Virus record (IMG/VR): IMGVR_UViG_3300036832_001373
Location: 32,001 to 96,000 of that record
Length of the DNA: 64,000 nucleotides
Source of the DNA: a virus
Reading direction: 5' to 3' (one strand)
In this document: piece by piece, positions 10,094 through 41,710 of the stretch
Layout: the number at the start of each line of letters is the position of its first letter
Numbering within the stretch: the first letter of the stretch is position 1
Made by a program: the position numbers and the translations under genes
The notes under the pieces: generated by a model
Told to the model about the DNA's origin: nothing
Seen by the model: only the letters and a program-made list of their open reading frames with translations
Database searches by the model: none

Positions 10094-10464
10094 TGCGTCC
10101 TCTTATAATTGATGGAGTAGCTAGAGCTAAGATAGCTCACGTTAAGAGTTACGCCGAGGAAAATCCATATTACCCTGGAGCTACAGGTATACCTGGAGAT
10201 GACGAGAAATATGTAGCTCGTTTAGGTACTTTTAGGTGTGTATTTACTCATACTCATCACAAAGGTAACGTATACCGTCACTTAACTATATCAGTGCCAA
10301 GTGCTAAGTACCCAAACCCAGTAGCCGCTTTTATTATAGCACAAGAGTTTGGATTTATAGGATGGGATGGTGAAACTGTTGATAGAGCACCAGACACTTG
10401 GTCGATAGATGTGAATAAAAAGGAGCATTGTATCGTTCTTGTACAGGAGGTCAAAGAAGAATGA
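10093..10464 (+). CDS. Hypothetical protein
   Basis: 123 aa; RHLTISV..YPNP. Confidence 0.65.
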   Translation: MRPLIIDGVARAKIAHVKSYAEENPYYPGATGIPGDDEKYVARLGTFRCVFTHTHHKGNVYRHLTISVPSAKYPNPVAAFIIAQEFGFIGWDGETVDRAPDTWSIDVNKKEHCIVLVQEVKEE

Positions 10465-11780
10465 AAAATCTAAGACTAGCAATCTCAGCAGATTGGCACC
10501 TTTCAGACTGGAGTCAGTTCTCAGAAATTGACGGTACAGGACGTCCAAGTCGTCTACTCCAGTATAATGAACTTGCTAAAGATTTTGTAAAGTTTGCTAA
10601 GGACAATAAAGCTGATTGTGCAATTATAGCTGGAGATATTGTTGACCAGTTTGGTGTTCTAAAGCCTATGGTATCTGACGTTCTAGATTCAGTAATTACC
10701 ACTATAAGTGAGAAATTTCCTCTATTTATAACTCATGGTCAGCACGATATAAATACAAAATCCGAAGAGATAGCTAGTTACCACAGTGCTCTTTCTAGAT
10801 TTAAAAGTAAGAACAATGTAAGTTATGCGAGCGTCCCTGTTCAATATACTATTGATAAGTATACATTATTAATAGCTCCATGGAACTCAGAACATAGTAT
10901 ACCAACTGATTTAGTTGGTGATATTTTTATAGGACATGGTGCAGTTCAAGGATCTACTAATCTTGAAGGGTATAAGTTTAGCTCAGGATTCAATCAAGAA
11001 GAATTATTCAAAAGATTTAGATTATCTATTATTGGTGACATTCACAATGGGCAGGTTTTTAGAAATACTGAAGAAAGAAAGATACTCATTCCTGGAACTC
11101 CTATTCAGTTTAATTATAAAGATAGTCCAGTATGTGGATTTTGGTTATGTGAACTCATGCCAGGAGATGTGAACTGTGAGTTTGTTCCTATTGAACGCAT
11201 TCATCCTGATTTCTATCATAGGTTTCTGCTTACTACTGACGAGAAAGCTACCTCCTCAAGACTAATTCATTATAGATATAAACCAGAAAAAGTTTCAAAA
11301 GAAAAGATCTCTAAGTCTGAGTTCAAACGAGATACAACTTCTATAATAGATATAGGTTTAGAAATTATTAAGCAATCTAAGATTTCTAATCAAGATGAAA
11401 TTGCTAAACAGTTTAGATCATTAATGGATGGACTATCTTCCTCTGATAGAAAAGTTCCTAGGTCAAGACTTCTGTATCTCAATATACAAGGATTTCTTTC
11501 AATCGAAGAGTTGTCTCTAGAGATGAAAGAATTTCCAGATAACTTAGTCCTTGTAGGTAAAAACGGACATGGTAAAACTGCCTTAGTTGAAGCTATTTAT
11601 TGGGCTCTTTGCGGTAAAACAACTAAGGGAGTTTCAGCCAATGATATTATAAATTGGTATGGAAATGGGGAATGCGTGGTAAAACTGGGTATTGAAGTAG
11701 AAGGAGTTATATATCAGATTACTAGATGGAGAAAGAATGGCGTTCCTGGTTTAGAACTTAACGTTTGGAGTCCAGACTAA
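10461..11780 (+). CDS. sbcD: SbcD/Mre11 metallophosphoesterase fused to the N-terminal (Walker A) part of SbcC/Rad50
   Basis: ADWH, AGDI, GQHD, GDIH; then IQGFLSIEE and GKNGHGKT. Confidence 0.88.
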   Translation: MKNLRLAISADWHLSDWSQFSEIDGTGRPSRLLQYNELAKDFVKFAKDNKADCAIIAGDIVDQFGVLKPMVSDVLDSVITTISEKFPLFITHGQHDINTKSEEIASYHSALSRFKSKNNVSYASVPVQYTIDKYTLLIAPWNSEHSIPTDLVGDIFIGHGAVQGSTNLEGYKFSSGFNQEELFKRFRLSIIGDIHNGQVFRNTEERKILIPGTPIQFNYKDSPVCGFWLCELMPGDVNCEFVPIERIHPDFYHRFLLTTDEKATSSRLIHYRYKPEKVSKEKISKSEFKRDTTSIIDIGLEIIKQSKISNQDEIAKQFRSLMDGLSSSDRKVPRSRLLYLNIQGFLSIEELSLEMKEFPDNLVLVGKNGHGKTALVEAIYWALCGKTTKGVSANDIINWYGNGECVVKLGIEVEGVIYQITRWRKNGVPGLELNVWSPD

Positions 11781-12487
11781 TGAGAAAAGAATGGAAAAAT
11801 CAACAATATCAATTAGTCCTTGATAAATGGGAAGAAGACTACATAATAAAACTATACACAGAAGATAATTTAAGTCCGTACACTATTTCAGATAAACTAA
11901 AGTCAGAAAAAACTTTTGGAGAAAATCCTCCGGGTAAAAGTTGGATAACAAATTTCCTCACTAGAAAAATGGTATGGACTGGATCGAAGTCAGGTCGTCC
12001 CAAAAGTAAATCCCACAGAGAAAGTATTTCTATAGCTACCATTCAGAGATACTCTGATCCGGAACAAAGAAAAGTAACATCAGAGGCTAAAATTGAATTT
12101 TACTCAAGTCCTGAGAATAGAAAACTCCAAAGTGATAGGATGAGGAAGTCTATTGAAAATGGATTTACACCCTACTTATCAAAAGGGGAATTTTTAGTAA
12201 AAGAGTTTTTAATGGAAAAAGGATTTAGACATCAGTATACATTTATTACAAGTAGATCAGAAGAAGGATTTCAAAAATCTAATTTTAGATTAGATTTCTA
12301 TCATCCAGAGTTAAGAATAAATATTGAAATAGATGGAGTATCTCATGAATGGAACAATGTTATAGAAAAAGATTTAGAGAAAGATCTAATTCTTAGATCC
12401 CTCGGAGTTAGAGTATTCAGAGTTAAAGAAGATTCAAATTTGAGATCAAATATAGAACGCTTAATAAATCAAGAACTAGGAGATTGA
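11780..12487 (+). mobile_element. Free-standing DUF559/Vsr-like homing endonuclease gene splitting sbcC
   Basis: NUMOD-like KSKSHRESIS repeat; FRLDFY..INIEIDGVSH...DLEKD..L..LGVRVFRV; TAATG coupling. Confidence 0.8.
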
Positions 12488-12489
12488 CT

Positions 12490-13935
12490 ATGGGATGGAA
12501 ACCTTACACAAGTAATACTACATCAGGTACTCAAGATACGATTCATGAACTTTTAGGTCTTTCTCAAGATGAGATTAAGCTTTTGTCTTACTTCTCGGCT
12601 AAAGCTCCGTCACTTTATGGAACATTGACCAAGTCAACAAGATACGATCTCATTTCAACTATAGCAGGTATGAGCGATGTAGATAAAGCTAGAGATATTA
12701 TAACAGATCTTCATGCTAAGACTTCAAGAGAACGTATTACTTCAGAGTCAGCTATATCTACACTTAAAAATGTCGAGGCCTCAAGTAAAGCTCGTATAAA
12801 AGACTTTCTTTCTAGAAAGGACACGAGAGTTTCAGTTAATACTCAAGCAATAGAGTCTCTTAAGCTAGAAGCTGAGGAGCAAATTAAAAAGTCTAGAGAT
12901 GAAAAAGAATTACGAGAGCTTATCGGAGAATGCTATAAAAAGTATAATGAATATCAGAGGGAACTCTCTAAACTTAATACGTCAGTACATCAATTAAACT
13001 TTGAATACGAAAGTATAAACTCGTCAATAACATCTAATCGAGATAAGTTAAAGAAGGCTTTGCAGGGAAAATGTCCAACTTGTGGCCAGTCACTTCATGA
13101 TGAAAACGTAGTAAACGATCTGACACACTTACTATCTCAACTTCAAGATAGACTTCCAGATATGAGTATTGCTTTTTCTCATAGAAAGAAGATTGGAGAT
13201 ATACAAGTCAATATTGAAGACAGTGAAGCTTTGAGAGCTCTTAGAGAGAAAGAACTTGAAAATCTTCAGTACTGGAAAGGTCAACTTTCTCTTTATGAGA
13301 AGAAACTCGCAGAAGTAAATAAGGAAAAAGTTGACTACGACTCGTTGATTAACGAAGAGATGAAAAATCGTGAGGAGTTGGAAAATAAAATTAAGTTAGA
13401 GGAATTTAAGCTTGAGGAAATCTCCGATAAAGAGTCAGCACAAAATTGGATAAAACTAACATTGCTCAAACGTAATGGTTTGTTGATAACTGAACTTTCT
13501 AAGCAAGGAAAGAAAATTCTCCAGGAACAGATTAACGAGTTAACGTATGGAGAAGATATTGAAGTTTTGGTTCAAGACGATCTTAGTGTCTCAGCTAAAT
13601 TTCTTAAGAGAAAAGAGGGAGACTATGAGTCACTGTCAACTGGCCAGTCCAGAGTTGTAGATATCGTAATGATGGTAGCGTTAAATAATGTCTTTATGAA
13701 ATTCTACGGACTAGAGACGGGACCGCTAGGATTAGTTATCTTTGACGAAGTATTGTCGTTCCTGGACGAAGAGTACGTAGACCTTTGTTATGAATTAATA
13801 CAGAAAACTAATGTGCCTAAGAGAATAGTAATTACTCATGATACCAAGCTAATAAGTAGATTCAATAGTCAAATAAACGTCTCCTTGAAAGGAGAAACTA
13901 GCTCTACCTACAAGAAAAACTGGAGTTCACAATGA
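12490..13935 (+). CDS. sbcC: SbcC/Rad50 C-terminal part (coiled coil, Zn hook, ABC signature, Walker B)
   Basis: CPTCGQ, LSTGQ, IFDEVL, VITHD; own AGGAG RBS. Confidence 0.88.
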   Translation: MGWKPYTSNTTSGTQDTIHELLGLSQDEIKLLSYFSAKAPSLYGTLTKSTRYDLISTIAGMSDVDKARDIITDLHAKTSRERITSESAISTLKNVEASSKARIKDFLSRKDTRVSVNTQAIESLKLEAEEQIKKSRDEKELRELIGECYKKYNEYQRELSKLNTSVHQLNFEYESINSSITSNRDKLKKALQGKCPTCGQSLHDENVVNDLTHLLSQLQDRLPDMSIAFSHRKKIGDIQVNIEDSEALRALREKELENLQYWKGQLSLYEKKLAEVNKEKVDYDSLINEEMKNREELENKIKLEEFKLEEISDKESAQNWIKLTLLKRNGLLITELSKQGKKILQEQINELTYGEDIEVLVQDDLSVSAKFLKRKEGDYESLSTGQSRVVDIVMMVALNNVFMKFYGLETGPLGLVIFDEVLSFLDEEYVDLCYELIQKTNVPKRIVITHDTKLISRFNSQINVSLKGETSSTYKKNWSSQ

Positions 13936-31130: not shown

Positions 31131-32486
31131 TTGCCCGTCAAAGAATCGGAGTTGGAACCGACGATCGTAGAAATTTTACTGGACCCCCAAGTTAGACAGT
31201 ACTGCGCTCCCTTTATAGAACCTTGGATGTTCCAGAAGACGATCTATAGGAATTTAGTAGAGTCTCTGATAAGTACGGACTTTAAGAATAGGCCAGTTGA
31301 CCTTAAAGTCCTTAGGCTGCATATGCAGCACACATACAGAGACATGTACAGTGAAGACTGGCAGATAGTGGAGAAAATATACGCATCATATGCACCAATT
31401 GCTAGTGAAGATCTCCAAGCAATCACGAGAATAATATCAGCTTTTATTAAAGACAGGATAAATTTAAAAGGAGTTGACCTCTATTCAAGAGGAGAAACGA
31501 AAGAGGCTCAGAAGCTCTTTACAAGAGCCACTACATTTAATATAACAGCGGATCCTTTTATTAATCCCTTACAAGAAGGTATTATAGACTATCTTAGACA
31601 AAAAGATATGCCAAAGGGAGGTAAAGTTATAAAGAGTTCTTTGGGATTAGTCAATGGTTCATCTCAATACGGAGGTTTTAAGAACGGTGACTTGGCAATG
31701 GTAGTTCTTCGTCCTAAGGGAGGAAAGACTACATTTATGATTCAAGAGGGAGCTGCAGCTGCAGATCAAGGGTTTAAGGTAGCTCACATATTTCTTGGAG
31801 ACTACTCTGAACTAGATGGACTTCATAAATATATGAGCTGTTTGACTGGAGACATCATTACCAATGTAGTCAACGCTCCAAACCAGTATAAGAAGAAATG
31901 TGAGAAGTGGCTAGAGCATCTTAGAGTGGCGTCATTCCCAGCGTTTGGTTTAGATTGTAATGAGATAGTTTCCTATGCTAGGAATTTAAGACGTAAGTTT
32001 GAATTTAGTGTCTTTGTCATAGACTATGATTCAAACGTTAGGCCACCAGACGACTCTGGAATGTATGAGACGGGTGGAATAATGTACTCAACGTTTAAAG
32101 GTTTCGCACAATCTGATGAATGTGTTGTAATAGTTGGATGTCAACCAAAAATTCAGTTTTGGACTGACGAACTACTAGGATTTAGTTCTGCTGCAGAATC
32201 TAGTCGGAAACAACATGCAGTAGATTATATGATTACAGGTGGTCGTAATACAGACTATTCTCAGGTAGGTACGTTCCATCTACCTTTGGTTAGAAGAGGA
32301 GAAAGTTCTGGAATAACTAGAGTAAAGTATGATGATCTTCATAGTAGAATTATAGAAATTTCTCCTAGAGAGTATGAAACATTGATACGAGATCACAAGG
32401 GCAGTCATGTCCAGGTTAGGGATCTTAGTCTGGACGGAGTTAGGTTTGAAGATAAAAGTAAGAAAGAAGATAAGGATAAGAAATGA
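31131..32486 (+). CDS. dnaB: Replicative DnaB-like (SF4) helicase
   Basis: RPKGGKTT, VIDYD, GCQP, AESSRKQHAVD, VRRGE. Confidence 0.85.
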   Translation: MPVKESELEPTIVEILLDPQVRQYCAPFIEPWMFQKTIYRNLVESLISTDFKNRPVDLKVLRLHMQHTYRDMYSEDWQIVEKIYASYAPIASEDLQAITRIISAFIKDRINLKGVDLYSRGETKEAQKLFTRATTFNITADPFINPLQEGIIDYLRQKDMPKGGKVIKSSLGLVNGSSQYGGFKNGDLAMVVLRPKGGKTTFMIQEGAAAADQGFKVAHIFLGDYSELDGLHKYMSCLTGDIITNVVNAPNQYKKKCEKWLEHLRVASFPAFGLDCNEIVSYARNLRRKFEFSVFVIDYDSNVRPPDDSGMYETGGIMYSTFKGFAQSDECVVIVGCQPKIQFWTDELLGFSSAAESSRKQHAVDYMITGGRNTDYSQVGTFHLPLVRRGESSGITRVKYDDLHSRIIEISPREYETLIRDHKGSHVQVRDLSLDGVRFEDKSKKEDKDKK

Positions 32487-34377: not shown

Positions 34378-36324
34378 ATGAAACAAGATGTTGACTTTAA
34401 TAAGATAGACTTTGATAGGATAAAACCTTTATTGAATTCCAAAGAACTTCATCAATATGATGAAGAAGTTAGACTAACTAATCCTAGATATAGAGAGATT
34501 CCTGTTGGTCAAAGAAAAACTGCATTAGCATTGATAATGACTGGACAAATGGATTCTATTCCTACTTTAGAAAGACTTTACTTAAAACGTAGGATTCCTC
34601 CAATAGAAGAATTTTTAACTTCTGAGTTCATAGGAGAAGATGCTATTACTTTATTTCCTCAGTGGAGAAGAGACCTATGCGAGGTTTTTGCTAAAGATTC
34701 GACAGTTAGAAAGTGGTTATGCACTGGAGCAATTGGAACTGGAAAGTCGTCCGCTGGAATCATAGCTCATCTATACAATATTTTTAGAATCAATTCTCTT
34801 AGACGTCCACAGTTAAGTCTAGGAGGTGGTTCGTCTAAACCAATGACTTGTCAGTTATTTACTGTAACTGTAGCTAAAGCACATACCACTCTGATGGATC
34901 GTGTAGTTATGCTACTAAGAGGGTGCAAGTATTATGTTGAAGTAAGAAAACTTCCTGACTTTAATCTTTTTCTAGATGAGAAATACGACGAATATACACC
35001 TTGGTGTAGAACTTATGAAGGGATAGAGTTTCCTCATGGAGTTAAGATATTCGTAGGATCTCAAGATAGACATGCCTTGGGTGAGGACGTATTCGGAGGA
35101 TTACTTGACGAGGCTGAGTTTAGAATAGGTGCTCACGGAGAAATCGAGAAGGCTGTAGCATTGTTTGACAATATCTATGAAAGAATTCGTTCCCGATATA
35201 TTGGAGCTAAGTTCACATTGATGACTATTATTTCATCTATACGAAAAGCCAAAGGAGTTATGTCAACTTATATGTCTCAAATGTCAACTGATCCTAGTAG
35301 TAAAATTTCTCAGTACAGCATTTGGGATACTAAATATCCTAGTGCTCTAGTAAATGATGGTCATATTTGGGTGATGAGAGGTACTCAAAGACATCCTTCA
35401 AGGGTCCTGAACGAGGTTGAGGGAGAGAAGGCTGACAAGCAAATATTCGAACTTCCACCTTCGTGTAGTATAATTAAAGTACCTAAACGATATCAGGTAG
35501 ACTTTGAACTAAGAACTGAAGAGTCTTTGATGAACTTGGCTGGTCAAGCGTCAATGGGTCAAGAAATCCCATTTGACGATCTGACCAGAGTTGAGGACAA
35601 TAAACTATGTCCTACATTGTACTTTACTGCTCCACTTGGAACTACCGCTAGACCTATTACTCAGCCTTTGAGAGACCAGCTTCCAAGAGAGATATTTAAG
35701 CAAACTCCAGATGGACCTAGGCTAAGACGTTATCCAATGGCTCCTAGATATGGCCATTGGGACGGCGCAGCTGTTAGCTCCGCCGGTTTAGTAGTTATTC
35801 ATAAAGAGCTGAGTCAGACTGGGAGGGTGATGTATATAACCGATCTAGTTATTAAAATAACTTCTCCTAATAGAATTAACTTAGATTTAGTAAGAGATTT
35901 TATTATAGATCTCAGAGATTTCTTCGGATTATCTTTTCACGCTTTTACTGCTGACCAATATCAGTCAGAACAACTTTTACAAAAGTTAACTTCTATTGAA
36001 TTTGCTGAAGAAATAAGCGTACTCTCAGTAACTAAGACAAGAAATCAGTATGATACACTATCTTCAGTTGTAGCTCAAGATTGTCTGAAGACTGGACAAC
36101 TGCGTGATCTATGGCAAGAGTTGGAAGGAGTTTACTTTGAACACGACAAGCCCTATAAGCAGTATAAAGATGGAGCACACGGTGACATTGCAGACGCACT
36201 TTGCGGTGCAGTATTTAATGCGGTGCAAAACCCATATGATATACCTATCAATCTATATGAATCATTCGGTAGAGTACCAGACGCTCTAAGAACCCTTGAG
36301 GGATCTTATCAAAAGATCGCCTAA
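34378..36324 (+). CDS. terL: Terminase large subunit
   Basis: GAIGTGKS, LLDEAEF, ISS, HWDGA, ADQYQS, DIADALCGAV. Confidence 0.88.
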   Translation: MKQDVDFNKIDFDRIKPLLNSKELHQYDEEVRLTNPRYREIPVGQRKTALALIMTGQMDSIPTLERLYLKRRIPPIEEFLTSEFIGEDAITLFPQWRRDLCEVFAKDSTVRKWLCTGAIGTGKSSAGIIAHLYNIFRINSLRRPQLSLGGGSSKPMTCQLFTVTVAKAHTTLMDRVVMLLRGCKYYVEVRKLPDFNLFLDEKYDEYTPWCRTYEGIEFPHGVKIFVGSQDRHALGEDVFGGLLDEAEFRIGAHGEIEKAVALFDNIYERIRSRYIGAKFTLMTIISSIRKAKGVMSTYMSQMSTDPSSKISQYSIWDTKYPSALVNDGHIWVMRGTQRHPSRVLNEVEGEKADKQIFELPPSCSIIKVPKRYQVDFELRTEESLMNLAGQASMGQEIPFDDLTRVEDNKLCPTLYFTAPLGTTARPITQPLRDQLPREIFKQTPDGPRLRRYPMAPRYGHWDGAAVSSAGLVVIHKELSQTGRVMYITDLVIKITSPNRINLDLVRDFIIDLRDFFGLSFHAFTADQYQSEQLLQKLTSIEFAEEISVLSVTKTRNQYDTLSSVVAQDCLKTGQLRDLWQELEGVYFEHDKPYKQYKDGAHGDIADALCGAVFNAVQNPYDIPINLYESFGRVPDALRTLEGSYQKIA

Positions 36325-36342
36325 CAACCAGGAGGTAAGACT

Positions 36343-36585
36343 ATGACAAAGCATATCATGAACATACTTGACCAAACTGGTCACACTTCAATGGAGTGGG
36401 ACGCTGATAATCAGATGGAGATAGAGATTGCAAGAGAAGCTTTTAATAAAGCTAGAGAAAGAGGATATCATGCCTTCAGAGTAACTGAAGGGAACCTCGG
36501 AGAGTCTCGTCGTGGAGAACGTATGACAACTTTCGATCCTAAAGCTGAGAAAATGATTCTTATGCCTCAGCTTCAAGGAGGCTAA
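36343..36585 (+). CDS. Small beta-grasp-like protein ending in diglycine (ubiquitin-like candidate)
   Basis: GGAGGT RBS; beta-beta-alpha-beta pattern; C-terminus MILMPQLQGG*. Confidence 0.6.
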   Translation: MTKHIMNILDQTGHTSMEWDADNQMEIEIAREAFNKARERGYHAFRVTEGNLGESRRGERMTTFDPKAEKMILMPQLQGG

Positions 36586-36589
36586 GATC

Positions 36590-37279
36590 ATGACTACTTA
36601 CTGGGATGACTTATACTCCACTGGGTCAACTCTAGTGAATAGACTCTATTTACCTCACTATCTTAGAGTACCAGGAACTCTCATTACTAATGCTACTAAT
36701 GGTACTTACAACTCGATTTACTTACCTAGCATGTTGTGTAATAGTGCAACATATTCCACAATACCTGAGTACTTTACTAACTCACTAACTACTACTAGCA
36801 CTACCACTAGTAGTGTATACAATAACCCTATAATCATAGGTAATACAGTTATATGGCCTAGTTGGCACGATGAAGTCGTATGTCCAACTCTTATTCAAGA
36901 AAGGATAGAGGCTGAGAACGCTAGACTAGAAGAACTTCGAAGAGTTGAAACTGAACGTTACGAGCAAAGAAAGCTTAGCACAGAGAAAGCCAACCAAATA
37001 CTCCTAGAACATCTCACGCCAGATCAGCGTGAGATGGTTGAGAAGAACGGATGGTTTGTGATTGAGGGAGGGAAGACAGGGAAGATTTATAGAATAGGAT
37101 CTAAATCAATCGCTGGAAATGTTGAGGAACTAGATGAGAAGGGAAAGGTAATAGCTAAATATTGTTGCCATCTACCACATCAGTATCCTCAATCAGATCA
37201 TCTTCTAACTCAGAAATTGATGTTAGAGTGGGACGAAGAAGAGTTTCTGAGAAAAGCTAATAAATCTAACGTAGCCTAG
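36590..37279 (+). CDS. Hypothetical protein (Thr/Ser-rich N-terminus, coiled coil, Cys/His globular domain), partner of the GG protein
   Basis: GGAGG RBS within the upstream GG codons; GNV...KYCCH..YPQSDHLLTQKLML. Confidence 0.7.
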   Translation: MTTYWDDLYSTGSTLVNRLYLPHYLRVPGTLITNATNGTYNSIYLPSMLCNSATYSTIPEYFTNSLTTTSTTTSSVYNNPIIIGNTVIWPSWHDEVVCPTLIQERIEAENARLEELRRVETERYEQRKLSTEKANQILLEHLTPDQREMVEKNGWFVIEGGKTGKIYRIGSKSIAGNVEELDEKGKVIAKYCCHLPHQYPQSDHLLTQKLMLEWDEEEFLRKANKSNVA

Positions 37280-37848
37280 TAAGTACCAGATACAGAAGCG
37301 TAAGCAGAATCTATTTGATGATAGGCTGCATTCCAGGCTGTAGACGATCCATCACCTTGATTAATACCTCCTGACTTGATACTTGAGTTTACAGAAGATT
37401 CTGTGTTGAAACAAGCCTGAACATACGTGTTAACACAATCAAATACATGACTGATCTCAGTAGCATTATATGAATGGAAACTTAAGTCTGCTAACTTCCA
37501 TTGGACAATTGTTCCAGTATGAATCTGACAATAAGTGTACACTGCGTGTAGAGCTTGTTGTGATTGTAGATCTGTTTCAATAGGTACTCCAGTAACAGTT
37601 ATACCTTTAATTTCTTTATTATATCTAGCATTCTCCGAATAATCTAAAAGAAAAGATTTAGCTGGATCGTGTGCATTATATACTGCCGTTACAGCATTTA
37701 TATCTGGATTTTGATGGATACTTTTACCCCAAGTAAAAGTACCGTCAGAAGCCCAAGAAAAATCCCAATTTGGTATAGCTGCTACTGTTAATTCACCAGC
37801 AAATGTAGGGCCTATCTTCTCACCATTAGGTCCTAGTGATACCGACAT
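37276..37848 (-). CDS. DUF4376-like tail fibre assembly protein
   Basis: RYNKEIKGITV.G..IETD..SQ...WKLAD...VQACF; downstream of fibres. Confidence 0.7.
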   Translation of the reverse strand: MSVSLGPNGEKIGPTFAGELTVAAIPNWDFSWASDGTFTWGKSIHQNPDINAVTAVYNAHDPAKSFLLDYSENARYNKEIKGITVTGVPIETDLQSQQALHAVYTYCQIHTGTIVQWKLADLSFHSYNATEISHVFDCVNTYVQACFNTESSVNSSIKSGGINQGDGSSTAWNAAYHQIDSAYASVSGTY

Positions 37849-37877
37849 GATTCTACTCCTTCATGATTCTTGAATAC

Positions 37878-39779
37878 TCATCCATCCACTGTTATAGTTA
37901 GTGATAACGGGGCTGGAAGTGGATTAGATAGGTTACGAGTATTACTGTAGACATAAGTTGCCCAGTTACACTCACCTCCTAATCCACCAGTCCCTCCTTC
38001 ACTTCCAGATGGAGTGAGTCTTAGACCTACTAAAGTACTGTAGTGGTCTCCCTCTGAGAGACCTAGCTTATCTCCAGAAAGAGCTATTGGAAAATAAAGA
38101 CTAGCTCCACCAGTTCCCTGATTAGCTGCAGTATTCTCTAATTCAGAAGTACCACCATCAAAAGAAATTGAGGTACTAGTTCCACAAGATAGACTTATAG
38201 AACTCCCTCCTGTAGTAAACTTTGCCAACTGACTGCCCCAGATTAAGAAATAATTTCTTAGAGTCTGATTTAGTTCAATATAGTCTCCAGAGGCAGTTGT
38301 TATCTGTCCTCGATTTTGATTAGATGGGAGTATTAACTGACTTCTAGATCGTTTTCGTCTTCTATTAAACCAAGATAGAACATACATCTGACCATCTTTA
38401 TCAGACCAAGCTGGTCCAGCTATTGTTCTTGCTTGTCCTACCAGACTACGAGTCTCATCCTGAGACTTAATTTCCACTCCTGTGATTAAGGATGTTGCAT
38501 GAGGCATAGTAGAAGCTTCTAGTGTCATTCCAGAGTTTGTCATGTAAGCATATATGTAGTAAGTAGTATTTGGTATAAGATTAGTTGTAGCTAGACTAAC
38601 TCCGTTTGCCGGAATGACTTGAACTTGAGCATTGATTATAATACTATTTCCATTGTAAGGATGTAGAACTAAAACATTGTTTATTAATTCAAGGTAACAA
38701 CCAGGACTATTAATTACTCCTAAAGGACCAGTTGGTCCAGCAGCTCCGGTAGCGCCACTGGCACCCGTAGCCGAACCTCCTCCAGTTCCAGATTGATCAG
38801 CAAATAATCCACCAGTAAAGTCAATCCAACATAGCCATCCAGTAGCATTCTGACTGTTGACTGGACCTATAGCATAACCAATGCACCAATCATTAGGTGA
38901 GGCTACAATTCGACCTGCATTAGGTCCAGCTCCAGCGTACAACAATTGTAATGTACTATAGGTATTGACAGGATCAACATACATACCATAGTTAGTAATC
39001 TCTTCAAGACTAGACCGTATACCAACCATAAAGTTAGTAACGTTAGGGTCACCGATAATAAACTGTTGTCCGGTTTGATCTATGCAAACTATAGTACCAA
39101 CAGTAGCACTACTATTAAATAAATTTGCGTTAACAGGAATAACTCCTTCACCCTGACCAGGGATTCTTCTCTCAGAAGCCATTAACCAAGCAGGGACATC
39201 TCTACCTTGATTAAACCCTTGTCTTAATGCTATAGCAGGGATTCTAGCAATAGAATGTCTGTCGATCTGACATGTGTTAAAAGCTACATGTGACGGATCA
39301 GGAAGAAGTGATTCATTAGCTACTTCAGGTACTGACACTAACTTTAGCAACGCTATGGTAAAATTACATATCTGAGGTAGACCTGTCATTGACAGGTATA
39401 TAGAGTAGGTAAGTCGGTTACCAAGAACGTTACCAGAAGTTTTGTATTTGTATTCTGCAGTAGCACTAATAGTAGTAATCGAGAATAATACTCCATCACT
39501 AGTATAGAGTCCTATTCGACCTACTAGAAAAGGACCTACCGACTCATCCAGGGTTAAAACGTATTCGACGGTATTATTATCGGATATAGCATATTGTAAT
39601 TGAGATGAGGTGGCAGTATAAACTACTTCTCCAGCTGGAAAGTCCAGAGTAGGATCGTTTGGAACTGGAGGAGTGGGTTGAGAACTTATCTTAGCGTGTT
39701 CGATATTAATCTTAGGGCCAGCTCCAGTTTTAGCGTTTCTAGCATAAGTTATCCCTGCAGCTGTTATCTGCGTTGCCAT
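37878..39779 (-). CDS. Tail fibre protein 1
   Basis: ITAAG N-terminal baseplate-attachment domain (GPFLVGRIGLY), GxT collagen-like linker. Confidence 0.85.
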   Translation of the reverse strand: MATQITAAGITYARNAKTGAGPKINIEHAKISSQPTPPVPNDPTLDFPAGEVVYTATSSQLQYAISDNNTVEYVLTLDESVGPFLVGRIGLYTSDGVLFSITTISATAEYKYKTSGNVLGNRLTYSIYLSMTGLPQICNFTIALLKLVSVPEVANESLLPDPSHVAFNTCQIDRHSIARIPAIALRQGFNQGRDVPAWLMASERRIPGQGEGVIPVNANLFNSSATVGTIVCIDQTGQQFIIGDPNVTNFMVGIRSSLEEITNYGMYVDPVNTYSTLQLLYAGAGPNAGRIVASPNDWCIGYAIGPVNSQNATGWLCWIDFTGGLFADQSGTGGGSATGASGATGAAGPTGPLGVINSPGCYLELINNVLVLHPYNGNSIIINAQVQVIPANGVSLATTNLIPNTTYYIYAYMTNSGMTLEASTMPHATSLITGVEIKSQDETRSLVGQARTIAGPAWSDKDGQMYVLSWFNRRRKRSRSQLILPSNQNRGQITTASGDYIELNQTLRNYFLIWGSQLAKFTTGGSSISLSCGTSTSISFDGGTSELENTAANQGTGGASLYFPIALSGDKLGLSEGDHYSTLVGLRLTPSGSEGGTGGLGGECNWATYVYSNTRNLSNPLPAPLSLTITVDG

Positions 39780-39790
39780 TCAATCTCTCC

Positions 39791-41710
39791 TTAACCTTCA
39801 ACAACCATAGTTATAGTAATAGGAGATGGAAGTGGGTTAGATTGGGTATGAGTATTACTATAGTCATATGGTCTCCATTGAGCTTTTCCTGGACCACCTC
39901 CAGAGAGAAATCCCATTAAAGTACTGTAATGCCATCCTTCTACTAATCCTTTTCTTGTTCCAGCAAGAGCTATTGGCCCTTCCATTGTAGGACCTCTTGT
40001 ACCTTGAGCAGCAGTTGAATTCTCGGACTCTGGGTAGAGACCGTCAATACTTATTGCAGAAGTTACACCGTTTCCACCATTACCCAAGTGACTACCTCCA
40101 GTAGAAAACGTAATTACTTGATTACTCCAGACTAAGAAATAATTTCTTAAAGTTAAACTAACCTCGACATAATCATTAGCAGAATTGGTACACAAACTAG
40201 CCAATTGAGATCTAGATCTCTTTCGTTTACGGTTAAACCAAGACAGTACATACAATTGACCATCAGTATCGATCCAAGCAGCGGGACTAGGTCCCGCTGT
40301 GGTCCTAGCAAAGCCAACTAACGTATAGTTCTGATCAAGATTTTTAATTTCTACTCCTGTAACTTGAGAAGTTATGTGACCAGCAGTAGAGGCTTGAAGT
40401 GCCATCCCAGTTGGAGTCATAAAAGCATAAATATAATAGTTAGTATCGTTTAGAAGTCCAGTAGGAGGTAAGTTAACTCCTGCACTTGGGATAGTTTGGA
40501 TTTGACCAGCTATTATTATACTATTCCCATTATAGGGATGCAGGGTTAGCAATCCACTTATTAATTCTAGATAACATTGTCCTCCAACCTGAAATCCACT
40601 TCCAGGTCCACCTCCACCAGTTCCACCTGGACCTGTAGCGCCTGTCGCTCCAGTAGCACCTGCTCCACTTGATTTCCTAGCGAATAATCCACCAGTAAAA
40701 TCTATCCAACATAGCCAACCTTGAATAGGCTGACTACCAGGAGGTGAGCTATTAACTGGGGCTATGGCATAGCCTATACACCAATTGTTAGCTGCTCCTA
40801 CAATTTGACCAGCATTAACTCCAGTACCAGCATATAATAACTGGAGAGGACTCCAGTTATTAATTGGATCAACGTACATACCATAATTTGTAATTTCTTC
40901 ATTACCTGTTCGTATACCGACCATAAAATTAGTAATTTGTGGGTCGGCAAGAACCATCTGAGGAGGATTTCCACTATAGTTTACAGAAACAATTTTGCCA
41001 ACGGGTGCATTAGAGGAAAATACAGAAGAATCAACTGGGACTACACCTTCACCCTGACCAGGAATCAGTCTCTCAGAAGCCATTAACCAAGCTTGGGACA
41101 TACCTAGAGAAGGCAGACCTCTTAGACCTATAGCTGGAATTCTAGCAAATGAATGTTTATCTACCTGATAAGTATTGAAAGCTACTCCAGTTGGACCAGG
41201 TAAAACTAGTTCTGAAGCTACCTCAGGTATAGTTAACAATTGTAATAATTGTATTGTAAAATTGGCTATAGTAGCTATACTTGAGATTGCTAGGTATATT
41301 GAGTATGTTAATCTATTTCCAACAACAGTTCCAGAAGTTGGAAATTTATTATCAGGGACATAGTTTCCACTTCCATCTTTAGTATCAATCATAGTTATGG
41401 AGAACAATGTACCATCCTCTGTGAAAAGTCCTATTCTACCAATAGTAAAAGGTCCGACAGACTCATCGAGAGTTAGAATATACTCTACAGTATTCTGATC
41501 TACTACTGCGTATTGCAATTGACCTGGACTGGCTGTATATACTGAGTCTATGATATCTATAGCCGGATCATTTGGAATTGGAGGTGATGAAGATCCTGGA
41601 GGAAATTGAGTAGGACCAATTTTAGCATAAGTTATATTAATTTTTGGACCCTGGTTATTTTTAGCATTAACTGCGTAAGTAATCCCAGCTTGTGTAATTT
41701 CAGTGGTCAC
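39791..41710 (-). CDS. Tail fibre protein 2 (full-length paralogue of fibre 1)
   Basis: Colinear similarity to 37878-39779 throughout. Confidence 0.85.
   Translation of the reverse strand: MTTEITQAGITYAVNAKNNQGPKINITYAKIGPTQFPPGSSSPPIPNDPAIDIIDSVYTASPGQLQYAVVDQNTVEYILTLDESVGPFTIGRIGLFTEDGTLFSITMIDTKDGSGNYVPDNKFPTSGTVVGNRLTYSIYLAISSIATIANFTIQLLQLLTIPEVASELVLPGPTGVAFNTYQVDKHSFARIPAIGLRGLPSLGMSQAWLMASERLIPGQGEGVVPVDSSVFSSNAPVGKIVSVNYSGNPPQMVLADPQITNFMVGIRTGNEEITNYGMYVDPINNWSPLQLLYAGTGVNAGQIVGAANNWCIGYAIAPVNSSPPGSQPIQGWLCWIDFTGGLFARKSSGAGATGATGATGPGGTGGGGPGSGFQVGGQCYLELISGLLTLHPYNGNSIIIAGQIQTIPSAGVNLPPTGLLNDTNYYIYAFMTPTGMALQASTAGHITSQVTGVEIKNLDQNYTLVGFARTTAGPSPAAWIDTDGQLYVLSWFNRKRKRSRSQLASLCTNSANDYVEVSLTLRNYFLVWSNQVITFSTGGSHLGNGGNGVTSAISIDGLYPESENSTAAQGTRGPTMEGPIALAGTRKGLVEGWHYSTLMGFLSGGGPGKAQWRPYDYSNTHTQSNPLPSPITITMVVEG

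Follow-up and report, generated by a model that had tools for sequence, protein, structure and literature searches.

The connection of bacterial ubiquitin-like protein tagging to phage defence is recent and was made through Bil, Bub and type II CBASS (cyclic oligonucleotide-based antiphage signalling system). Bil comprises a ubiquitin-like protein (Ubl; BilA), an E2 conjugating enzyme (BilB), a JAB peptidase (BilC) and an E1 activating enzyme (BilD), and examples of Bil and Bub have been solved structurally (8tyz, 9eav). In ThiS/ThiF-ThiG and MoaD/MoaE, a small beta-grasp subunit ending in Gly-Gly (GG) stands beside a larger subunit that accepts its tail, and the E1-like activator is encoded separately. 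Phages carry a beta-grasp protein of their own in lambda-type tail assembly protein I, which is paired with gpK (JAB plus NlpC/P60) in tail-tip operons. E2-only CBASS consists of a cGAS and a stand-alone E2 with no E1, and a C-terminal glycine tail inserts into a partner in which both the Cys and a nearby His are essential (10.1101/2022.05.25.493364). Here, we analyze a two-gene cassette at positions 36343-37279 of a 64,000-nucleotide stretch of viral DNA (positions 32,001 to 96,000 of the 147,529-base IMG/VR virus record IMGVR_UViG_3300036832_001373; henceforth termed the window). The cassette bears, on the phage side, the two most telling marks of ubiquitin-like chemistry, namely a beta-grasp body that ends in GG and a partner with a single conserved cysteine, and we class it as a candidate phage-borne system of the ubiquitin-like tail kind, in which E1, peptidase and a recognisable E2 are missing.

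The first gene of the cassette (36343-36585, + strand) lies 7 nucleotides (nt) behind an AGGAGG ribosome-binding site read from the sequence (36330-36335, +). Its open reading frame (ORF) encodes a protein of 80 amino acids (aa) that terminates in ...KMILMPQLQGG directly before a TAA stop codon, leaving the Gly-Gly as a free C-terminus. The codons of Gly79-Gly80, GGA GGC (36577-36582, +), contain a GGAGG (36577-36581) located 8 nt before the ATG of the partner gene. Secondary structure prediction places strands at residues 3-10 and 13-20, a helix at 24-39, and further strands at 42-49, 55-61 and 70-75, and the AlphaFold2 (AF2) model, with a predicted local distance difference test score (pLDDT) of 84.9, shows this b-b-a-b-b-b order. 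When the model was compared with known structures, the Foldseek and VIA lists consisted almost entirely of beta-grasp proteins, including protein L, protein G, Raf RBD, SUMO, ubiquitin, PB1, the Bil Ubl 8tyz_B and BubA 9eav_C, though these matches are weak. The protein has no family in Pfam, PHROG, NCBIfam or PADLOC, and a profile search of the PDB gave no solved relative by sequence. A match to PaaB (phenylacetyl-CoA epoxidase subunit B) was rejected as chance: it was given by only 1 of 62 family members and scored 17.6 bits against a cut-off of 27 and 18.5 against 85. We read the small protein, from its predicted structure, as having a beta-grasp topology, without demonstrable membership in a known ubiquitin-clan family.

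Close homologues of the small protein number 22 (51-79% identity, all metagenomic), and 21 of these end in GG. A profile search of 1.84 billion cluster representatives gave 2026 matches at E up to 0.001, 508 of them at E up to 1e-10. Among the best 150 of the 2026 representatives, clustered at 50% identity, the end is exactly GG in 133, GG plus one to six residues in about ten more, and AG or PG in a few, against a chance expectation for a random GG end of less than 1%. The profile match nearly always reaches the last residue, even in proteins with unrelated N-terminal extensions of up to 100 aa, and a Pro at position -5 and the hydrophobic pattern preceding it are likewise conserved.

Translational coupling might account for the GG in another way, as a by-product of a G-rich ribosome-binding site for the next gene that has nothing to do with ubiquitin-like tails. 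The window itself would fit, with Gly-Gly codons that form GGAGG at ideal spacing, and so would the partner start, which nearly always falls within a few nt of the stop. However, 53 non-redundant GG-ending genes use diverse codon pairs (GGC GGC in 14, the commonest; GGG GGC, GGA GGC and GGT GGC in 7 each; and others), only 12 have GGAGG at the GG codons, and 40 have no GGAG or GAGG within their last 12 nt. This codon variation, together with the scarcity of GGAGG, indicates that selection acts on the protein. The GG is also kept when the stop shifts by 1-6 codons, and the conservation of the Pro and of the hydrophobic pattern likewise argues against a by-product. That explanation is largely refuted and in our view barely credible; judged from these alignments, the Gly-Gly end is conserved at the protein level. 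Rare architectures occur in the family as well (P0163 with 230 aa, P0128 and P0167), one of which runs past the GG into an unrelated 135-aa region while two are tandem small domains. At L032 (2369-2977), the frame of a family member continues beyond the usual end without GG and a partner-like fragment scores on the opposite strand; this copy may be decayed.

The partner gene (36590-37279, +) starts 4 nt past the small-gene stop and is translationally coupled to it. It encodes 229 aa, reads ...IAGNVEELDEKGKVIAKYCCHLPHQYPQSDH... and contains GNV...YCCH; 20 homologues were found. According to the alignment, the protein begins with a variable Ser/Thr/Asn-rich region (36590-36886, +) that has W-P-x-W-H at its end (residues 89-93); of 65 partners, 37 carry a WxxW[HQNY] motif, and S/T/N residues make up a median fraction of 0.25. 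A long single helix follows (residues ~100-141; 36887-37012, +), modeled by AF2 as helix 11-52 of a 140-aa fragment with pLDDT >90. Its VIA matches are coiled coils without exception, and the modeled helix is possibly a coiled coil. AF2 modeling and conservation together delimit a globular C-terminal domain of ~90 aa (residues ~144-227; 37019-37270, +) in the order helix, four-strand meander, short Cys loop, two helices and short strand (pLDDT 91.6). Within it, the conserved site Cys192-x-His194...Pro200-x-x-Asp203 (37163-37198, +) extends from the end of strand 4, where Cys192 is located, to the start of the next helix, which Asp203 caps. Across 65 diverse partners, Cys192 and Asp203 are each conserved in 97%, Pro200 in 95% and His194 in 80%, while the second Cys of the 'CC' (Cys193) is not conserved.

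The partner belongs to no Pfam, NCBIfam, PHROG or PADLOC family and has no PDB relative by sequence. The original prediction, made from the letters of the window alone, had set its GNV...YCCH beside the N-x-C region of E2 enzymes. The order of the UBC/RWD superfold, which we take to be helix, four-strand meander, conserved Cys/Pro loop and two helices, presumably matches that of the partner domain, and the near-invariant Cys after strand 4 is a likeness to canonical E2s. In contrast to these enzymes, the partner loop has only ~8 residues, and the Cys stands ahead of His-Pro instead of behind an HPN motif. In 24 partner members, Pfam searches at E up to 5 gave no match to UQ_con, Prok-E2 or RWD, and neither an E2 nor an RWD or JAB protein was listed for the partner model in Foldseek searches of the PDB (best E 0.26), in the wide VIA search, which was swamped by the 42-residue helix, or in a second look. 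The motif has the form Cys-x-His...Pro-x-x-Asp instead of HPN...Cys, and only the first Cys of the 'CC' is conserved; an assignment of the partner as an E2 is not supported. A search for fused partner forms of >448 aa found none, which is weak evidence.

We compared the loci carrying the pair, comprising 6 plus 51 viral loci, one from a metagenome-assembled genome (MAG), several metagenome contigs and the GenBank record of virus Rctr197k. In 63 of 65 loci, a hidden Markov model of the partner domain matched the gene that directly follows the small gene in the same orientation; of the remaining two, one locus stops 190 nt past the small gene and the other holds an aberrant copy that lacks the GG end. 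The partner starts within -13 to +6 nt of the small-gene stop in 44 of 53 loci. Judged from gene order, pairing is close to obligatory. Two loci have two pairs each, a few kb apart (L007, 3326-3950 and 6001-6718, one copy of which ends in AG; L065, 4296-5251 and 5938-6596), and the phages carrying the pair span a GC content of 39% to 65%. The neighbours are otherwise unrelated and include HNH, HTH, TROVE-vWA and Pam3 gp33-like genes and, once, an Acb2/Tad1-hairpin gene. Clustering of 4673 ORFs from ~63 loci gave no tightly linked third gene, and this candidate component was rejected. What the clustering did return were antisense shadow ORFs; a ParB-like protein (phrog_5931, DGQHRL motif), whose position differed among the 16 loci that have it; and an AAA ATPase, found in ~9 loci. 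Given a downstream partner in 63 of 65 loci, unrelated neighbours and no third conserved gene, the cassette is a mobile two-gene unit. A link to RNA repair (RtcB, TROVE, RNA ligase or Thg1 near single loci) was dismissed after no recurrence across 60 loci, and adjacency to terminase was seen only in the closest relative, L002, and likewise rejected. A promoter and terminator scan gave background level only. At one locus (L010, 6255-6491), the Acb2/Tad1-hairpin gene, of the anti-CBASS/anti-Thoeris sponge type, lies among small genes 1.5 kb upstream of the pair.

Several statements of the original prediction are borne out by these data. The ORF and its predicted secondary structure agree with its 80-aa protein of b-b-a-b-b-b pattern ending exactly in GG, and the sequence confirms both the GGAGG that the Gly-Gly codons supply to the next gene and the GNV...YCCH of the partner. 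Of the three properties on which it had staked itself beforehand, the beta-grasp fold is what the structural matches returned, though weakly, while the conservation of GG among homologues and the co-occurrence of the two genes are seen in the counts given above.

Outside metagenomes, few relatives have a name. In tblastn searches of GenBank phages, three small-protein family members as queries matched only Rctr197k and a partner query matched nothing; a search of a genome collection for the family gave one MAG contig only, and atlas searches matched only unnamed clusters. Besides their absence from Pfam, NCBIfam, PHROGs, PADLOC and the PDB, neither family was found described in the literature, a jumbo-phage survey included. 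The gene pair is common in phage metagenomes, yet undescribed. In Rctr197k (L001, KX853510.1; 3815-5067 and 6249-6986), the small protein is a tandem domain duplication that ends in PG and is followed by two partner paralogues; transposase genes and a CRISPR repeat region are no more than 2 kb away. A BFVD fold search with the partner model recovered two Rctr197k proteins and a 397-aa protein of Agrobacterium phage Atu_ph07, AUZ95012 (E 2e-3, TMq 0.60). In the Atu_ph07 genome (L068, MF403008.1; 2738-4289, - strand), AUZ95012 starts 4 nt after AUZ95013, which encodes 117 aa with a family-like start (profile E 0.02; hhalign probability 50%) and the C-terminus ...MKQFAGG. AUZ95013/AUZ95012 is probably a distant family member in a cultured jumbo phage and offers a cultured system for testing. 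In the published Atu_ph07 numbering, the AUZ95012/AUZ95013 pair corresponds to gp230 and gp231, both of which are absent from the stretch gp215 to gp238 of the virion proteome table (PMC6102473). A tRNA-His guanylyltransferase gene is located three genes downstream of the pair.

To our knowledge, the only other proteins that combine a strictly terminal Gly-Gly with a beta-grasp body are those whose terminal carboxylate gets activated, i.e., ubiquitin-like modifiers and sulfur carriers. Because this combination is encoded beside a partner with one conserved cysteine, we favour a complex in which the tail occupies the Cys pocket of the partner. The two genes would form a self-contained phage accessory cassette, in which the function of the small ubiquitin-superfold protein would depend on its free C-terminal Gly-Gly and translational coupling would provide the partner in step with it. 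Both proteins would bind each other with the tail seated at the Cys site, and Cys192, with His194, Pro200 and Asp203, would most likely receive it, which would make the partner a carrier, E2-like in role with no claim to E2 ancestry. Choosing or placing a target would fall to the variable N-terminus and the long helix of the partner, and the terminal glycine would be activated by an E1-like adenylating enzyme of the host or through novel chemistry. We place the tail-in-pocket complex, as a self-contained module with an E2-like partner, somewhat short of an even chance. The covalent transfer step, taken on its own, is its least secure element and is doubtful. A bolder version, in which the two phage proteins tag without any E1, Cys192 forming a thioester with the terminal glycine and passing it to host or phage targets picked by the partner N-terminus, for example to disable host immunity, we consider distinctly unlikely.

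Structure prediction, which the original prediction had proposed for both proteins and their complex, delivered the beta-grasp-like small protein, while the complex scored only weakly and no E2 fold was listed. The pair reached a median interaction prediction score from aligned errors (ipSAE) of 0.47 (0.44, 0.47 and 0.69 in individual runs), compared with 0.01 for the best control; at least 82% of contacts are shared between the runs, with a partner pLDDT of at least 77. Among reference cases, 58 of 80 solved complexes reached the ipSAE mark, as did 2 of 110 mismatched pairs, and those passing it at 0.60 or under comprise only 7 of the 80 solved complexes plus both passing mismatches.

Besides this weak score, and the placement of the tail at Cys192 by inference, several points weigh against the favoured complex. 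None of 62 small-protein members has a ubiquitin-clan Pfam match (ubiquitin, ThiS, MoaD, Prok_Ub) at E up to 5. The window shows no E1, as the original prediction had remarked, and this extends to the entire 147.5-kb record and to four related viral records, one of 78 kb rated 100% complete, in all of which no E1/ThiF match was found; the record of the window has no Prok-JAB match either. The sole ThiF gene found lies in Rctr197k, 60 kb from its pair, and a host E1-like enzyme could still act as activator. We know of no E1-free route other than that of E2-only CBASS. Thioester formation in that system requires that the glycine be followed by a residue that can leave (10.1101/2022.05.25.493364), and most members of the small-protein family end exactly at GG, with no residue behind it.

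Comparison with the described systems sets the pair apart from each of them. An E1 and, as a rule, a JAB peptidase are part of Bil and Bub operons, whereas the record of the window has neither; these operons are bacterial defence genes, whereas the pair is a phage cassette of only two conserved genes; and the pair shows no sequence relation to their Ubl or E2 families and no PADLOC model match. E2-only CBASS, likewise a two-protein system, provides a precedent for such a minimal pair. However, CBASS cuts at least one residue after the glycine, while the small protein of the pair mostly has no leaving group; the CBASS substrate is a nucleotidyltransferase instead of a beta-grasp protein; and the partner has no detectable UBC similarity. 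With ThiS and MoaD, the pair shares a small GG-ending beta-grasp protein encoded directly beside a larger one, but there is no match to the ThiS/MoaD families, the partner is not MoaE- or ThiG-like, and the genes are located in phage accessory regions rather than cofactor operons. The lambda I/gpK pair similarly combines a phage ubiquitin-superfold protein with a neighbouring gene. It differs in its JAB domain and tail-tip setting: the record of the window has no JAB, the context of the cassette varies, and the Atu_ph07 pair does not appear in the virion list over the stretch mentioned.

The tail could also act without any activation step. In a purely non-covalent two-subunit protein, the Gly-Gly tail and its free carboxylate would plug a Cys/His/Asp pocket, possibly a metal site, and the small protein would be a regulatory or inhibitory, antitoxin-like subunit. 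Such plugs have analogues in the tail of MoaD, which is inserted in MoaE, and in protein inhibitors that plug carboxypeptidases. A cassette that moves among phages with nothing else conserved fits this self-sufficiency, as does the absence of E1 from the phage records searched, and a small gene followed 1-5 nt later by a larger one is the layout of stoichiometric complexes and type II toxin-antitoxin pairs. The geometry of the site, with Cys192 and His194 two residues apart at a strand end and Asp203 at a helix start, would suit a metal better than a protease triad. On the other hand, the site lacks a conserved fourth metal ligand, the partner gave no match to any metal-binding or toxin family, the GG of MoaD still serves chemistry, and we know of no such system in which a beta-grasp protein is held so strictly to an exact Gly-Gly at its C-terminus. 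We judge a purely non-covalent pair unlikely, short of improbable.

Host enzymes would take a different role if the small protein were a decoy or sink directed at host immunity of the ubiquitin-like type (Bil, Bub, type II CBASS Cap2): host E1/E2 would take it up instead of the true substrate, and the partner would trap or discharge it. A beta-grasp body with a GG tail is what the host enzymes of Bil and CBASS recognise, and a phage without its own E1 and a cassette that occupies variable accessory regions, in one locus at 1.5 kb from an anti-defence gene, are consistent with this role, as is the lack of both Atu_ph07 proteins from the listed part of the virion proteome. An obligatory partner with a conserved cysteine would, however, be superfluous; the phages carrying the family differ widely in GC content, hence in host, whereas these defence systems are patchy; similarity to BilA or CD-NTase tails does not go beyond fold class; and the anti-defence neighbour occurs in one locus only. 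A decoy is thus improbable. Still less probable is a sulfur carrier of the ThiS/MoaD/TtuB kind, for which a host MoeB/ThiF-type enzyme would make the thiocarboxylate and the partner cysteine would transfer the sulfur to a nucleic-acid or small-molecule substrate. None of the 62 members matches ThiS or MoaD in Pfam, the partner shows no likeness to a sulfurtransferase, a PP-loop ATPase or MoaE, and the RNA-repair neighbours did not recur.

Should the pair prove to tag proteins, no smaller ubiquitin-type system would be known, and phages would have a new class of tool for countering defence or taking over the host; if tagging were E1-free, a minimal ubiquitin-type system would exist in thousands of phage lineages. 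A pair that does not tag would be the first case known to us of a strict Gly-Gly end in non-covalent recognition.

In the window, the pair ends a long plus-strand block with DNA polymerase A, NAD ligase, SbcCD-like, RecA-like and DnaB-like genes. Directly upstream lies a 648-aa ORF (34378-36324, +) with a P-loop-like GTGAIGTGKS motif that matched nothing in Pfam, PHROG, NCBIfam or the PDB; the related contig L002 has it at 89% identity, and the ORF may, as a guess, be a divergent large terminase. Downstream follow three convergent tail-fibre genes (37276-41710, -) for a 190-aa DUF4376/phrog_10508 protein and two ~635-aa paralogues with a tail-collar fibre N-terminal domain; the stop codon of the first of the three genes overlaps the partner-gene stop. 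The SbcCD-like nuclease looks rearranged (10428-13935, +): Metallophos and the N-terminal SbcC/Rad50 ATPase part are joined in ORF 10428-11780, and the Walker-B part is in a separate ORF, 12484-13935. The 240-aa ORF between them (11765-12487) may be an inserted element.
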